DNA from: a virus
Taxonomy: Duplodnaviria > Heunggongvirae > Uroviricota > Caudoviricetes
IMG/VR virus record: IMGVR_UViG_2529293249_000013
Location: 1 to 23,521 of that record
Direction: 5' to 3' (one strand)
Length of the DNA stretch: 23,521 nt
Numbering within the stretch: position 1 is the stretch's first letter; each line of letters begins with the position of its first letter. Made by a program: the position numbers and the translations under genes. The notes below the pieces were generated by a model that worked only from the letters and a program-made list of their open reading frames with translations, did not search any database and was not told where the DNA came from. Below, piece after piece: positions 1,446-7,316 of the stretch.

Positions 1446-2033
1446 GTGAATATTTTTAGGTCTTTTAAAGAAAGGTTAATCCCTATTGTTTATCTTTCAT
1501 GCATAAAAAGAACCGCAGACATTACAGTTGGGAAAAATGTCAAATTTAGGGGTGTCCCTGACTTATCAATAGGAAAAGGCTGTTCATTGATAATAGGAGA
1601 TGGTTCATTTATAAACTCATCAAACAAATACTATCATGTAAATATGTTTTCCCCAGTTAAAATATTTGCTGAAAGGGAAGGAACTATTATTTCGATAGGT
1701 AAAAACACAAGAATACATGGGGCATGCTTACATGCCTATAATAAAATATCAATTGGAGATAGATGTCTGATAGCAGCGAATGTACAGATAATTGATTGCA
1801 ACGGTCACGAAAGTTCATTTGAAAATGTGGAAAATAGAATCAATACTTCGAGCGATGGGGTCCCAGTTATTATTGAAGATGATGTGTGGATAGGTACAGG
1901 CTCCATCATTTTGCCTGGAGTAACCATTGGTAGGGGATCAATCATAGCTGCCGGTAGCGTGGTTGTAAAAAGCATACCGCCAATGTGTATAGCTGGGGGA
2001 AACCCAGCTAAAGTTATAAAAATGGCGGACTAA
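1446..2033 (+). CDS. Hexapeptide-repeat (left-handed beta-helix) acetyltransferase, WbbJ/NeuO-like; candidate O-antigen or capsule O-acetyltransferase (lysogenic conversion)
   Basis: 195-aa ORF with GTG start at 1446 and ACGGAG about 10 nt upstream. Hexapeptide repeats visible (IGKNTRIHGACLHAYNKISIGDRCLIAANVQI; VWIGTGSIILPGVTIGRGSIIAAGSVVVKSI). GC about 30-35 percent versus about 47 percent in the late genes. Sits between integrase and tailspike, as oac does in Sf6 and neuO in CUS-3. Confidence 0.8.
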   Translation: MNIFRSFKERLIPIVYLSCIKRTADITVGKNVKFRGVPDLSIGKGCSLIIGDGSFINSSNKYYHVNMFSPVKIFAEREGTIISIGKNTRIHGACLHAYNKISIGDRCLIAANVQIIDCNGHESSFENVENRINTSSDGVPVIIEDDVWIGTGSIILPGVTIGRGSIIAAGSVVVKSIPPMCIAGGNPAKVIKMAD

Positions 2034-4470: not shown

Positions 4471-4602
4471 TTAATTTGCTCCAGATACAATGAATCGCCG
4501 CAGCATGGCTACGGTTGATGTTTGTTGCATACCGAAATGGTACGATTGTTGATTTGTACAGTAGGTTTTACGATGCCATTCCACCCATTTGGTGAGGCAT
4601 TG

Positions 4603-4860
4603 ATGATGTACAGCAAATACGATGAGGCGCAGTTCCACTTGAGGCTTACGCACGAGTTGCACGCTAAGATTAAGCAGCGTGCAAAAATGAATAACAGGTC
4701 TATCAATTCCGAAATTGTGGCTACGATGGAAGAATCACTCTCCAAACCATCACCTGTAAGCGGGTATCGTGATGAAGAAGAGAGGTTGGCCTCATTAATC
4801 TCGGAGCGAGTAAAAGAAGTTGCGGCTGATATCCTTAGAAAAGAAAAAACCCGCGATTAA
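4603..4860 (+). CDS. mnt: Mnt-like ribbon-helix-helix repressor (immI region)
   Basis: Six-frame ORF 4522-4860 trimmed to ATG at 4603, which has RBS GGTGAGG upstream. The 85-aa product has RHH motif NNRSINSEIVATMEESL and a C-terminal SKPSPVSGYRDEEERLA close to P22 Mnt (SKPSPVTGYRNDAERLA, from memory). Confidence 0.8.
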   Translation: MMYSKYDEAQFHLRLTHELHAKIKQRAKMNNRSINSEIVATMEESLSKPSPVSGYRDEEERLASLISERVKEVAADILRKEKTRD

Positions 4861-4874: not shown

Positions 4875-5096
4875 TTAGTTATCAAAAAGTCCGTACGTTT
4901 CTTCTTCTTCAGGTGTAAGGGGAAGAATCTCTACTCTATCTATAGATATCTTTTCAATGTACCCATGAGGTCTACTTAAAATTAAAGCTCTCTCATGCCA
5001 CAGAACTCCAAGAATGTGATACCTTCCAGCATCGCCTTTTACCCTGGCTCTTCCTTTGATTCTTGGCGGCATAATGCCATATTTTTTCTTTGCCAT
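4875..5096 (-). CDS. Hypothetical 73-aa protein, translationally coupled to the upstream KilAC-domain gene
   Basis: Its ATG overlaps the stop of the upstream gene (TAATG). Basic N-terminus MAKKKYGIMPPRIKGRARVKG. No family recognised. Confidence 0.45.
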   Translation of the reverse strand: MAKKKYGIMPPRIKGRARVKGDAGRYHILGVLWHERALILSRPHGYIEKISIDRVEILPLTPEEEETYGLFDN

Positions 5097-5824
5097 TATG
5101 CAACATTACTCCCATGAATCAGGTGTTGTAGTGCTTTAACACCTTCCTCATTGTAGCGGAATGCTTCCACCTGTTTGCTGGAATGCGCAGATTTATCCAG
5201 GAAGAACTTCCCGTACTGCTCAGTTTTGAGGTTGTTTGCGTTAGCAATGCGACCAATCTTGTTGGCCGTTACCCCAAGCTGCTCTGCAACCTCCCCTGCT
5301 GAGTAGTAATGCTCTTCTATTGCTGGAAGAGGTATTGCATTAAAACCAACGATCGGGTTGATTATGCTTGCTGCCGCAGTCTGCTTTGCTTCCGGCGCAA
5401 GATTTGGCATCAAATCGAACAGATTGGTAACAGCTTCAACCGTCATTTTCAATGTTCGCGCCTGGCGATACTCAACAAGTCCACTAGACGATTTACCGCT
5501 TTTAATGTGCGCTTCTTGCATACTTTCAAGTTGGTCTACAAGTGAGCGGCGAACAGCTTTAGATTCACGAGCAGCCACTCGAAGGGCTTGCTTAATTGAC
5601 ATAACAACTTTTTCAGAAGTTGTCTTGTTTGATTTTTGAACTACGAAAATTTCGTAGTGCTCACCTTCAAGTTCATCCTTAATGCGTGCAATAAAGTCGT
5701 TATTGCGGACTTCTTTTTCCCCGCACTGTCTACGAGCATGATTGACCATCTCTAACAGGTACTGGCTATCAATGGTTTTATCCGTGACAACGGATCCGAT
5801 GTTTGCTACATTCTTAAAAGTCAT
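5096..5824 (-). CDS. Phage antirepressor/regulatory protein with KilAC-like C-terminal domain
   Basis: Six-frame ORF 5096-5875 trimmed to ATG at 5824 (MTFKNVANIG...) with RBS AAGGAA 8 nt upstream. N-terminus TIDSQYLLEMVNHARRQCGEKEVRNNDFIARIKDEL resembles phage antirepressor N-domains; C-terminus (YSAGEVAEQLGVTANKIGRIANANNL...) looks like a KilAC domain. Assignment from memory, moderate. Confidence 0.6.
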   Translation of the reverse strand: MTFKNVANIGSVVTDKTIDSQYLLEMVNHARRQCGEKEVRNNDFIARIKDELEGEHYEIFVVQKSNKTTSEKVVMSIKQALRVAARESKAVRRSLVDQLESMQEAHIKSGKSSSGLVEYRQARTLKMTVEAVTNLFDLMPNLAPEAKQTAAASIINPIVGFNAIPLPAIEEHYYSAGEVAEQLGVTANKIGRIANANNLKTEQYGKFFLDKSAHSSKQVEAFRYNEEGVKALQHLIHGSNVA

Positions 5825-5912
5825 TAGGCATTCCTTATGTGGTAGTAAGGGTGTGACATAGGCCGCCAGCAGCACACTGGCGGTTTTCTTTTTGCGCCGT
5901 CCGGCGCACCAA

Positions 5913-6539
5913 TCAATGAATCCATTCCTCGCCGCGCAGTTTTGCCAGCATTGGCTGAGCGTTCTTTACGACAAAATTGTTGGTATCAAGATTCTTCATT
6001 TCACGAAGAAGTGATTTCTTGGTTTCTTCTGACATGTAGCGAGTCTCATATGCAATATCGTAAATCCTTCCTGAAAGCTCAGAACCAATTTGCTTCATTC
6101 CTGGGTAGATGTGTTTGCACATTTGTTGACTCTTCTCCATCCACAATTGTAAGTAGCAGAGATTAACCAGTTCTTCGTCAGTAAACTGTTTTGCAATCGG
6201 TGAGCATTCTGCCTGCCGATCCAAAATATCCAGCACCCAGCGGCGGAACTCTTTGGCTACCTGAGTGCGAGCAAACATCGCGATTAGGTGGGCACCGCGT
6301 AGTGAGAAAACACGCACTTTTTTGCGATAATTTCCTGAGGTACTCACTTCGAGTACCTGAGTCATTCCGGCGCTAAACTCATCGCTATACTTGTTATAAA
6401 TCATTGTTACTGCACGACTATTTGCGTATTTAAGTGCAGATGCAATATTAGATGATGTAAACCAAACACCATGCATATCACGGGTGGGCACCAATTCAAC
6501 TCCGTGGAAGTTATAATCTGATTTTGCTACAATATTCAT
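5913..6539 (-). CDS. Bro-N-type antirepressor-like protein (ant analogue downstream of arc)
   Basis: Bro-N-like motif YNFHGVELVPTRDMHGVWFTSSNIASALKYANSRAV...RVFSLRGAHLIAMFARTQVAKEFRRWVLDIL. Start set at ATG 6539 (MNIVAK..., RBS AAGGAAA). An upstream in-frame ATG at 6623 also has a plausible RBS and would overlap the arc stop. Confidence 0.7.
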   Translation of the reverse strand: MNIVAKSDYNFHGVELVPTRDMHGVWFTSSNIASALKYANSRAVTMIYNKYSDEFSAGMTQVLEVSTSGNYRKKVRVFSLRGAHLIAMFARTQVAKEFRRWVLDILDRQAECSPIAKQFTDEELVNLCYLQLWMEKSQQMCKHIYPGMKQIGSELSGRIYDIAYETRYMSEETKKSLLREMKNLDTNNFVVKNAQPMLAKLRGEEWIH

Positions 6540-6608
6540 GTTAGTTTCCTTGCATACGGTTACTGACATAGAGGCCCGGTTTGTGTTCACGCACTGCCGG
6601 GCTTCACT
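6525..6608 (+). ncRNA. Possible sar-like small antisense RNA, complementary to the ant-analogue RBS and start codon
   Basis: Plus-strand consensus -10 TATAAT at 6512-6517 (weak -35). Downstream, a hairpin GAGGCCCGG-17 nt loop-CCGGGCTTC (6571-6605) is followed by ACTATTTTTACT. The predicted ~80-nt transcript would be antisense to the RBS/ATG at 6539-6552. P22 has a sar RNA in the equivalent arc-ant interval. Confidence 0.25.
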
Positions 6609-6612
6609 ATTT

Positions 6613-6786
6613 TTACTGGGCATTAGCTCTTTCCTCTCTCAGGCTTTTAGCCAGTCGCTGCACAATCGCAGAGTTGATAGAAATTCCATCCATTTCAGCA
6701 ACACGTCTAATCTCCTCCTTCATTCGCGCTGGCAAACGAAGCTGGAAACTTTGACTTTTACGACCTGTGTAAAGCACATCTTTCAT
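6613..6786 (-). CDS. arc: Arc-like ribbon-helix-helix repressor
   Basis: Six-frame ORF 6613-6801 trimmed to ATG at 6786 with RBS GGGAGGA. The 57-aa product has RHH motif SFQLRLPARMKEEIRRVAEMDGISINSAIVQRL, resembling P22 Arc (QFNLRWPREVLDLVRKVAEENGRSVNSEIYQRV, from memory). First gene of an arc-ant-like operon. Confidence 0.75.
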   Translation of the reverse strand: MKDVLYTGRKSQSFQLRLPARMKEEIRRVAEMDGISINSAIVQRLAKSLREERANAQ

Positions 6787-6897
6787 AAGTAATCCTCCCA
6801 CAATGATACCAACTTGGTTCTAGAACCAATTTAACACCATTTATTTTGATGTCAAGTTGGTGCTATTGTTTAGCGAACATCTTTACGTTGAGGTCAT
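6787..6897. promoter_or_regulatory. Divergent promoter/operator region between arc-like (minus) and second mnt-like (plus) genes
   Basis: Perfect 16-bp palindrome TTGGTTCTAGAACCAA (6814-6829), flanked by 9-bp inverted repeats ACCAACTTG (6808-6816) and CAAGTTGGT (6853-6861). Minus-strand promoter: -35 TTGACA (6850-6855), 16-nt spacer, -10 TAAATT (6828-6833); the palindrome covers the -10 and predicted start site. Confidence 0.6.
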
Positions 6898-7218
6898 ATG
6901 AGCAAGTTCCCTAGTCATGAAATGGATAGGTTCAATATCAGGCTTCCTGCAGGAATGCGGGATGCTATAGCTGAACGAGCCAAACGTAACGGCAGATCAA
7001 TGAACTCAGAGATTGTTCAGATACTGGAAGATGCCTTGAATGCAGAAAATACACTCGGGGAAATAGCAGATAAAATCAACAGCGTCTCGGTTCCGCTAAA
7101 TGTTGATGCGCTAGTTCAACTTCAAGCCCAGGTTATCGCCATGCAAAAAGAAATACAGGAAAAGTTCAGAGAGCAGAACGAAAAGTTGAGAGAACTGCTA
7201 AACAAAAAAACCACCTGA
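6898..7218 (+). CDS. Second Mnt-like RHH repressor (N-terminal RHH plus C-terminal coiled coil)
   Basis: 106-aa ORF. RHH motif FNIRLPAGMRDAIAERAKRNGRSMNSEIVQILEDAL, then a heptad-rich C-terminus (LVQLQAQVIAMQKEIQEKFREQNEKLRELL). Divergent from the arc-like gene, in the position P22 mnt occupies. Confidence 0.7.
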   Translation: MSKFPSHEMDRFNIRLPAGMRDAIAERAKRNGRSMNSEIVQILEDALNAENTLGEIADKINSVSVPLNVDALVQLQAQVIAMQKEIQEKFREQNEKLRELLNKKTT

Positions 7219-7240
7219 CGGTGGGTTAATTTTTGCCTTT
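7204..7240. terminator. Putative terminator after the second mnt-like gene
   Basis: AAAAAAA-CCACC-tgac-GGTGG followed by GTTAATTTTTGCCTTTTTT. Short stem. Confidence 0.4.
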
Positions 7241-7316
7241 TTTGGACCATATTGACTACTCATAAAATGAGATCAATATTTAATCGCCCAATAACGGGTG
7301 CATGTTGAGGTATATC

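Follow-up and report, generated by a model that had tools for sequence, protein, structure and literature searches.

Positions 6540-6615 on the plus strand of an E. coli prophage, numbered within the window (the whole stretch of 23,521 nucleotides analysed here), very probably encode a diverged homologue of the sar gene of phage P22; from the sequence comparisons we put the probability of this reading at about 85%. The sar antisense RNA of this prophage is a known kind of switch that was overlooked by standard annotation, and by analogy with P22 it would regulate the synthesis of the antirepressor encoded on the opposite strand. P22 sar itself is represented by the Rfam family RF00262 (Liao et al., 1987; Wu et al., 1987; Schaefer and McClure, 1997, as cited in PMC2629481 and PMC11016777). 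The first-pass annotation had placed a sar-like antisense RNA gene in the arc-ant interval, on the strand opposite the ribosome-binding site of the antirepressor, and this proposal is supported by homology as well as by a covarying, strand-specific structure. Its description as a “functional counterpart” of P22 sar was right about the position, and the evidence now goes further, as profiles in both directions point to a sequence homologue.

The target gene is located on the minus strand at 5913-6539 and encodes an antirepressor of 208 aa with a Bro-N and a P22_AR_C domain (Pfam), which is assigned to “anti-repressor Ant” in PHROGs. Its start codon (6539-6537) is preceded by the Shine-Dalgarno sequence AAGGAAA at 6551-6545 on the same strand, and an identical prophage carries the same start in RefSeq. 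On the other side of the intercistronic region, the minus strand encodes an arc-like ribbon-helix-helix repressor of 57 aa (6613-6786, stop codon 6613-6615), which matches the Pfam Arc domain (PF03869) with 45 bits and is likewise annotated in RefSeq. For the arc-ant operon, the promoter scan reported a Pant-like promoter at 6828-6855 on the minus strand with 10 of 12 matches (TTGACA, a 16-nt spacer, TAAATT and a TG before the -10), convergent with the sar-like promoter discussed below. Inverted repeats at 6800-6869 overlap this Pant-like promoter. The neighbourhood of the element thus consists of the Arc-domain repressor, the Bro-N/P22_AR_C antirepressor, the Pant-like promoter and a divergent ribbon-helix-helix gene, and the entire locus sits between DNA-transfer and tailspike genes, as in P22. 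The region had been regarded as otherwise rearranged, but it is not fundamentally so: ribbon-helix-helix repressor, Pant, arc, sar and ant follow each other in the P22 order. The differences from the P22 locus lie in the N-terminal domain of the antirepressor, which is of the Bro-N instead of the P22_AR_N type, and in some added genes.

Evidence for homology comes from searches in both directions. Although P22 sar and plus-strand 6540-6615 are only 54.5% identical, a family sequence profile built without P22 had its sole match in the whole P22 genome at 15090-15025 (E 1.5e-10), and the P22 sar locus was still matched (E 1e-5) by a profile that also excluded all members with a P22-like terminator. 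In the reverse direction, a profile made from the four RNAs accepted by the Rfam sar model had its only window match at 6548-6615 (E 1.6e-5). With the covariance model R1, which includes the window sequence in its seed, 6540-6615 was the only significant match in the window (73.4 bits), and a model search with filters off did not find a second copy of the R1 family elsewhere in the window. The alignment between the window and P22 runs block by block from TTGCTAnAnTATTCAT/GTTrGTTT over TTACTGACA to GArGCC...GGGCTTCA, and the P22 record has sar annotated at 15021-15090, Psar at 15097-15125, the end of arc at 15022 and the start of ant at 15091.

The likeness extends to the layout of the two elements. 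Both are antisense to the arc-ant intercistronic region and overlap the ribosome-binding site of ant; both have a promoter, in the window a candidate one, in the first ant codons with an aligned extended -10 of the form TGCTAnAnT, a 5' end that abuts the start codon and a 3' end at the arc stop codon, which for the window RNA are predicted positions. Two stem-loops are found in P22 sar, in the window RNA and in 44 variants, the second one being an intrinsic terminator, and window and P22 have in common a 6-bp 5' stem with a 16-nt loop holding the anti-Shine-Dalgarno, the TTACTGACA block and the terminator stem base GArGCC/GGCTTC. In contrast to P22, the window terminator is longer, interrupted and different in its apical part, its U-tract is better (UUUUU vs UUU), the predicted RNA measures about 75 nt rather than 68-69 nt, and the target has a Bro-N domain in place of P22_AR_N.

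The hairpin at 6571-6605 and the T-run behind it had been recognised before and were recovered on reading the sequence: GAGGCCCGG (6571-6579) pairs with CCGGGCTTC (6597-6605), including one G.U pair, and ACTATTTTTAC follows directly at 6606-6616. In this terminator stem-loop of the plus strand, an outer stem of 10 bp encloses an inner one (GUGU/GCAC), and the tail ACUAUUUUUA (6606-6615) comes next. A simple terminator scan missed the hairpin because its loop is longer than 8 nt. Stem-loop I (6540-6567, plus strand) forms by pairing of GUUAGU (6540-6545) with ACUGAC (6562-6567), and the anti-Shine-Dalgarno UUUCCUU (6545-6551) reaches from the last base of this stem into the 16-nt loop. Folding of the plus strand yields -35.1 kcal/mol for 6524-6616 (z = -6.2, with none of 200 shuffles as good) and -33.3 kcal/mol for 6540-6615 (z = -5.9). 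The arrangement of a 5' hairpin with the anti-Shine-Dalgarno in or beside its loop, followed by a terminator, is predicted in all 44 distinct variants used for the structural comparison (56 were used for the promoter hexamer). All nine consensus pairs of the terminator are 100% paired over the 44 variants and five of them covary, and sliding the 3' partners by 1-3 columns lowers the pairing from 93-95% to 31-58%. For stem-loop I, 83-86% of the cells are paired in a fixed register and two to three pairs display double changes; this register is not constant, with a shifted 3' arm in some lineages. The covariation of this conserved structure is strand-specific. Shuffle controls exaggerate significance, as the compared sequences are mutually related.

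The candidate sar promoter is likely the extended -10 TGCTACAAT at 6525-6533 on the plus strand, with the hexamer TACAAT at 6528-6533, which lies opposite ant codons 3-5. It aligns with the annotated Psar -10 of P22 (TATACT, 15102-15097), and the hexamer conforms to TAnnnT in every one of 56 distinct relatives, 38 of which also have TGn in front. This pattern is kept despite the overlapping codons 3-4, which encode IV, SV, SI, SL, TV, NL or II, and across the unrelated antirepressor N-terminal domains Bro-N and P22_AR_N. A weak -35 may be provided by TGGAAG at 6505-6510 on the plus strand (three of six matches, 17-bp spacer), which is not conserved beyond the Bro-N type antirepressors. Due to poor -35 elements, the simple promoter scan reported neither TACAAT at 6528-6533 nor the TATAAT at 6512-6517 that is considered below.

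Judged by the alignment with P22 sar and its annotated 5' end, the predicted antisense RNA covers 6540-6615 on the plus strand (about 73-76 nt). It likely starts at G6540, just beyond the ant start codon, and would end in the U-tract at 6610-6614, which overlaps the arc stop codon. An RNA from 6540 would span the Shine-Dalgarno sequence and the entire leader without the AUG or any ant codon, as coverage of these would require a start near 6524. The previously suggested transcript of roughly 80 nt over both the ribosome-binding site and the start codon can therefore be retained for the ribosome-binding site, but not for the start codon, given the homology-based start at G6540. As a cis-antisense RNA, 6540-6615 is by construction fully complementary to the mRNA.

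The main alternative concerns the promoter. In the first-pass annotation, the -10 was TATAAT at 6512-6517 on the plus strand, placed between the arc stop and the ant start. This hexamer is indeed present, but it lies inside the ant coding sequence, opposite codons 8-10 (Asp-Tyr-Asn), and we rejected it as the promoter because TAnnnT occurs at the aligned position in no more than 8 of 56 relatives, in contrast to the homologous -10 at 6528-6533. An antisense RNA starting near 6524, about 7 nt after TATAAT, would be about 90 nt long and would cover the ant start and the first five codons. It would have a perfect -10 hexamer, and the fold of the RNA 6524-6616 is just as good, with stem I growing to 8 bp; TATAAT could also serve as a second, strain-specific start site. 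However, the hexamer has neither a usable -35 nor a TGn, and in 18 loci with the same encoded N-terminus a synonymous TAT/TAC change turns it into TGTAAT, which lacks the critical -11 A. Moreover, in the alignment with P22 the annotated promoter falls on 6528-6533 and the annotated 5' end on 6540, not on a start at 6524, so that we regard the upstream start as unlikely.

The probability is lower still that the hairpin acts only inside the arc-ant mRNA, for instance in processing, stability or attenuation, and that no antisense RNA is made. Most of the stem can also form on the minus strand (349 of 396 stem cells, compared to 396 of 396 on the plus strand), but the 47 G.U cells of the terminator stem would become A.C mismatches there, and only the plus strand has a U-run behind the hairpin. 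The plus-strand RNA is also the more stable one in 43 of 44 variants (mean -29.5 vs -19.4 kcal/mol), and the fold of the opposite strand is unexceptional (z = -1.45). A hairpin confined to the mRNA would leave unexplained why a -10 is kept in all 56 relatives at a fixed upstream distance, and the P22 record lists the homologue as a transcribed antisense RNA, which has been recovered in small-RNA sequencing (PMC13397905). Least probable of all in our assessment is a mere recombination linker between exchangeable phage modules or an inactive sar relic in the prophage. The ends of the element are also mosaic boundaries, as similarity extends up to 6541 for SPN3UB and up to 6619 for JEP4 and begins at 6532 for Oslo. 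This and the weak -35 would suit such an origin. Yet a linker would be plain conserved sequence, without compensatory stem changes, strand-specific wobble pairs or a TAnnnT with variable middle, and unlike a relic the window copy still has its -10 intact, together with the two hairpins and a longer U-tract than P22. We also considered and rejected the possibility that the leader is conserved because it is coding, with the ORF 5913-6623 as an ant gene extended upstream into arc. Leader variability is without an excess at third codon positions (0.889, 0.876 and 0.943 bits), the hypothetical leader peptides lack conservation and in P22 a stop interrupts the frame; we found no sign of coding selection in the leader.

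For the sar homologue at 6540-6615, a mechanism can be proposed that follows P22 with regard to promoter activity, exact RNA ends and repression of ant translation. The extended -10 TGCTACAAT, buried in ant codons 3-5, would fire toward arc and produce a roughly 75-nt RNA ending at the intrinsic terminator, whose U-tract overlaps the arc stop. Being perfectly complementary to the arc-ant leader and carrying its anti-Shine-Dalgarno in and beside the 5' hairpin loop, the RNA would pair with the arc-ant mRNA and block ribosome binding at ant. This mRNA could originate from the Pant-like promoter or from late-operon read-through toward the tailspike gene, and antirepressor synthesis would in this way be kept low after Pant shut-off. 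The P22 papers of 1987 reportedly also dealt with interference between the two convergent promoters, which may occur here as well.

The stretch 6480-6640 is 100% identical in the prophages of E. coli SBF22 and 3CM, E. coli HS (NC_009800) has a closely related prophage, and 58 distinct sequences of the element were collected. In 79 of 80 viral loci, covariance model R1 had its match on the antisense strand immediately behind the arc stop. The same holds for all 14 genome loci outside the model build, which come from more than 10 genera of Enterobacterales (Klebsiella, Rahnella, Pantoea, Erwinia, Yersinia, Citrobacter, Hafnia, Izhakiella, Lonsdalea, Serratia and Pectobacterium). By comparison, the Rfam sar model RF00262 had no match in the window even at E <= 10 and none in two near-identical loci at E <= 1, so that the window RNA does not reach the gathering threshold of 43 bits. 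P22 sar scores 97.8 bits with this model and the relatives form a gradient, from 59, 53 and 48 bits (accepted) over 38, 37.6, 32.7, 30.7 and 28.9 bits (below threshold) to window-type loci with zero matches. The Rfam sar model is too narrow for the window branch of the family. A scan of the whole window with all Rfam gathering thresholds matched nothing, and with relaxed cut-offs 6350-6950 and 5700-6000 gave nothing but weak sub-threshold hits to symR, microRNA families, Hrs13 and SgrS, which we treated as chance or common architecture. In the RefSeq annotation of the identical prophage, there is no RNA in the arc-ant gap, and a full-text search of an incomplete literature collection returned no description of sar relatives tied to Bro-N antirepressors. 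Some GenBank records stretch the antirepressor ORF over the RNA gene into arc, since no stop interrupts the frame of ant within the leader of 37 of 44 variants.

A similar design is known from SymR/symE of E. coli (RF01809), where a cis-antisense RNA of about 77 nt with two hairpins covers the ribosome-binding site and has its promoter inside the 5' end of the target. The symR model scored 21.2 bits (E 0.15) in the window and 34.8 bits for a related element in a P4-like island, far under its gathering threshold of 61, and R1 did not pick out the K-12 symR locus (only 6.3 bits, E about 4). We therefore dropped this link; the resemblance is one of architecture and not of demonstrated common descent. 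In the phages P1 and P7, a small RNA of the second immunity region, the c4 antisense RNA, prevents translation upstream of the antirepressor gene (icd-ant). Unlike the window RNA, c4 is processed from the transcript of its target and uses short complementary sites instead of being encoded on the opposite strand, and no Rfam family of the c4 kind was found at threshold in the window.

The window also contains a second, separate sar-like unit at 5803-5896 on the plus strand, antisense to the beginning of the following antirepressor gene (ATG 5824), which belongs to the PHROG 1726 “anti-repressor” family. It combines the extended -10 TGCTACATT (5803-5811), the anti-Shine-Dalgarno AUUCCUUAU (5830-5838), a stem-loop spanning 5860-5886 and a run of T residues to 5896, and was matched neither by model R1 nor by any Rfam family. 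Hence, two such units are arranged in tandem, one per antirepressor gene. A sar-type unit is also found opposite the start of an Icd-like gene in E. coli P4-like islands, in this case without arc nearby. The design comprises an extended -10 in the first codons of the target, an anti-Shine-Dalgarno hairpin and a terminator abutting the stop of the upstream gene; it occurs with antirepressors whose N-terminal domains are unrelated, and their first four or five codons are fixed by it. Whether this amounts to a portable cassette that is widespread among Enterobacterales prophages and islands and reaches far beyond the Rfam family is in our opinion an evenly balanced question.

Our data leave the knowledge of how sar works unchanged and the finding is modest in itself. 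Nevertheless, a predicted regulator missed by automatic annotation has now been identified, and the overextension of antirepressor ORFs through a sar-like RNA gene can be flagged as an annotation trap. Antisense control of antirepressor synthesis would thus be kept in P22-like and other prophages of many enterobacterial genera, where it appears to survive the swap of the antirepressor N-terminal domain, with the embedded candidate promoter constraining the first codons of the protein.

The sar antisense RNA family has a new member in the window, a diverged one that current annotation misses. The RNA, predicted at 6540-6615 on the plus strand, lies between the Arc-domain gene arc (6613-6786, minus strand; 57 aa, Pfam PF03869, 45 bits) and the antirepressor gene ant (5913-6539, minus strand; 208 aa, Bro-N and P22_AR_C domains). 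In RefSeq, an identical prophage of E. coli strain SBF22 is annotated with these same arc and ant ends, and no RNA is marked in the 73 nt between them. The surroundings are P22-like, with DNA-transfer genes and a tailspike gene flanking the locus, and the P22 record has the same arrangement (sar at 15021-15090, minus strand; its promoter Psar at 15097-15125; arc end at 15022; ant start at 15091). Read side by side, both loci present their blocks in common order, TTGCTATACTATTCAT|GTTGGTTT ... TTACTGACA ... GAAGCCC ... GGGGCTTCA in P22 and TTGCTACAATATTCAT|GTTAGTTT ... TTACTGACA ... GAGGCCCGG ... CCGGGCTTCA in the window, at an overall identity of 54.5%.

The Rfam sar model (RF00262), with which P22 sar scores 97.8 bits, found no match in the window at the gathering threshold or at E ≤ 10. 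Homology was therefore tested without that model and from either side. Across the 41.7 kb of the P22 genome, a family sequence profile built without P22 picked out one significant site only, exactly 15090-15025 (E 1.5e-10), which was also recovered by a stricter profile excluding all members with a P22-like terminator (E 1e-5). In reverse, a profile of only the four Rfam-accepted RNAs had a single significant site in the 23.5-kb window, 6548-6615 (E 1.6e-5). Rfam sar scores among the relatives are graded, from accepted RNAs (59, 53 and 48 bits) through RNAs below the threshold but all at the same position (38, 37.6, 32.7, 30.7 and 28.9 bits) to window-type loci with no match to the model. On this gradient the window RNA is at the outer limit of one unbroken family, of which the curated model covers only a part. 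The reciprocal profile matches thus bear out the first-pass annotation, which had proposed a candidate sar-like RNA, a known kind of regulator, opposite the antirepressor ribosome-binding site, and they identify it as a homologue of P22 sar rather than a mere analogue.

The promoter has to be placed differently. The first-pass annotation had taken TATAAT (6512-6517) as the -10 hexamer. It spans ant codons 8-10 (Asp-Tyr-Asn), but just 8 of the 56 distinct sequences have TAnnnT at the aligned position, and in 18 loci with the same encoded N-terminus it has become TGTAAT through a synonymous change from TAT to TAC. The annotated Psar -10 of P22 aligns instead with TACAAT (6528-6533); here TAnnnT is kept in 56/56 sequences, preceded by TGn in 38 of them. 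TACAAT overlaps ant codons 3-4, where the residues vary (IV, SV, SI, SL, TV, NL, II) around constant T, A and T positions, even where the N-terminal domains of the antirepressors are unrelated (Bro-N and P22_AR_N). This pattern argues for selection on the DNA motif and not on the protein, and the embedded -10 would fix the first antirepressor codons, clearly exemplifying how a promoter can restrict the N-terminus of a protein. Across all loci, with the window at 6525-6539 (minus strand), the ant starts read M-(N/K/S/T)-(S/I/T/N)-(V/I/L)-(A/Q). The putative -35, TGGAAG, is weak (3/6 matches), as is the aligned P22 -35. From the usual -10 spacing, +1 is predicted at G6540, which aligns with the annotated P22 5' end. 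Such an RNA would cover the Shine-Dalgarno sequence of ant (AAGGAAA, 6551-6545, minus strand) and the entire leader and leave out the AUG, so that of the proposed overlap with ribosome-binding site and start codon only the former stands.

All strings quoted in the earlier reading (TATAAT, the hairpin arms and the tail) were found at their coordinates. The terminator pairs GAGGCCCGG (6571-6579) with CCGGGCTTC (6597-6605), followed by ACTATTTTTAC. For plus-strand 6524-6616 the predicted fold has two hairpins (-35.1 kcal/mol, z = -6.2, 0/200 shuffles); plus-strand 6540-6615 reaches -33.3 kcal/mol (z = -5.9) versus -22.9 kcal/mol (z = -1.45) for the complementary mRNA strand. Taken together, the fold energies and z-scores of both strands point to a structure beyond chance, with the plus strand favoured. 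Among the 44 variants, the terminator stem has nine consensus pairs, with pairing in 100% of cells and compensatory double changes at five of them; a shift of the 3' side by one, two or three columns lowered pairing from 93-95% to 31-58%. G.U occupies 47 of the 396 stem cells; these become A.C mismatches on the mRNA strand, and pairing is therefore 396/396 on the plus strand and 349/396 on the minus strand. In 43/44 variants the plus-strand RNA is the stabler one (means -29.5 vs -19.4 kcal/mol). A 5' hairpin with the anti-SD in or beside its loop, then the terminator and a U-run are predicted in all variants, the 5' hairpin being maintained partly through register shift (83-86% of cells paired in fixed register). 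Since the variants are mutually related, the shuffle controls overstate significance, which does not affect the slide control and the strand asymmetry.

Using the Arc-like protein as query against viral contigs we collected 80 loci, and the covariance model R1, built from 44 distinct RNAs, matched once per locus in 79 of them, on the antisense strand directly after the arc stop codon. Its sole match in the window is 6540-6615, and phages JEP4, KP12 and Oslo are matched as well. When species-representative genomes were scanned, R1 further matched all 14 loci obtained, which had played no part in building it (E-values 4e-12 to 1e-4; hosts Klebsiella, Rahnella, Pantoea, Erwinia, Yersinia, Citrobacter, Hafnia, Izhakiella, Lonsdalea, Serratia and Pectobacterium).

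These data also bear on other readings of the element. A start at TATAAT may occur as a minor, strain-specific extra, for which comparative support is nil. The conserved -10, the wobble pairs and a U-run present on one side only all contradict a hairpin that acts purely at the mRNA level. A rival reading takes the element as a mere recombination linker, and the mosaic boundaries do match its ends: similarity to SPN3UB ends at 6541, the ant start, that to JEP4 at 6619, the arc stop, and that to Oslo begins at 6532 (KP12 similarity begins at 6502; window 5800-7300 compared with phage records). However, a mere linker would not covary. The sar unit seems to be located at a module junction, and it probably travels as a module.

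The analysis shows homology, position, a conserved promoter motif, a two-hairpin fold that is kept and strand specificity. By analogy with the P22 mechanism, as far as it is outlined in papers cited in PMC2629481, PMC11016777, PMC12111858 and PMC13397905, the promoter inside ant would give rise to an RNA terminating at the arc stop codon, which would pair with the ant leader and prevent antirepressor translation. The target mRNA would include read-through transcripts from the late operon. Convergent transcription from the arc-ant operon promoter Pant is reported in the 1987 P22 papers to interfere with Psar, in which case the RNA would accumulate after shut-off of Pant by Arc or the Mnt-like repressor.

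The gene content of the locus exceeds that of the P22 immI region. Two antirepressor genes stand in tandem, the second at 5099-5824 (minus strand), together with a 73-aa gene of unknown function (4878-5096, minus strand) and a third Arc-domain gene (4522-4860, plus strand), convergent with the operon and annotated as Mnt in phage JEP4. A Pant-like promoter (6855-6828, minus strand) lies between arc and a divergent ribbon-helix-helix gene (6898-7218), and this intergenic region holds inverted repeats at 6800-6869, namely 6802-6821 with 6822-6841, enclosing the perfect palindrome TTGGTTCTAGAACCAA, and 6800-6816 with 6853-6869. They overlap the promoter and may be operators at which the Arc-like and Mnt-like repressors bind. 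In the arc-ant leader (6540-6623 in the window), the ant frame is free of stops in 37/44 aligned variants and the other two frames in only 5 and 12; leader length is 1 mod 3 in 37/44. The open frame gives an ORF 5913..6623 in the window, and GenBank records of KP12 and Oslo show extended ant ORFs overlapping arc. A codon-position signal and a conserved peptide were sought in the 44 aligned leaders, and neither was found.

One gene downstream, a second antisense-RNA-like unit of like design lies at 5803-5896 (plus strand), opposite the start of the gene that follows ant (ATG 5824; PHROG 1726 'anti-repressor', E 9e-101). Its extended -10 TGCTACATT (5803-5811, plus strand) is within the first codons of that gene; the other parts are an anti-SD AUUCCUUAU, the hairpin at 5860-5886 and, on the plus strand, a T-run just past the ant stop codon. 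TGCTAnnnT is aligned in 27/28 distinct versions with differing target N-termini, and a strict pattern for the terminator is present in 62 sources. Neither R1 nor any Rfam family recognises this unit, and P22 has an ordinary sense terminator at its position. Besides, the terminator half of the window RNA has matches of 80-90% identity in 52 E. coli genomes, the listed examples lying either beneath Icd-like genes or in DNA that is unannotated. A single such locus was examined, in a P4-like island of E. coli MLI106K2 (NZ_CP117049, 1474-1547, plus strand; R1 50.6 bits, E 9e-9). The sar-type unit there has no arc gene upstream and faces, on the opposite strand, the start of an Icd-like cell-division-inhibitor gene, whose first codons contain the extended -10 TGGTATGAT. 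Rfam SymR weakly matches both this locus at 1468-1540 (plus strand; 34.8 bits, E 9e-5) and the window at 6537-6608 (plus strand; 21.2 bits), below its gathering score of 61 in each case. As the K-12 symR locus is not recognised by R1, the likeness to SymR is one of architecture only. The sar homologue itself is of modest interest; what most deserves to be pursued is how broadly the cassette occurs, along with the second unit in tandem.
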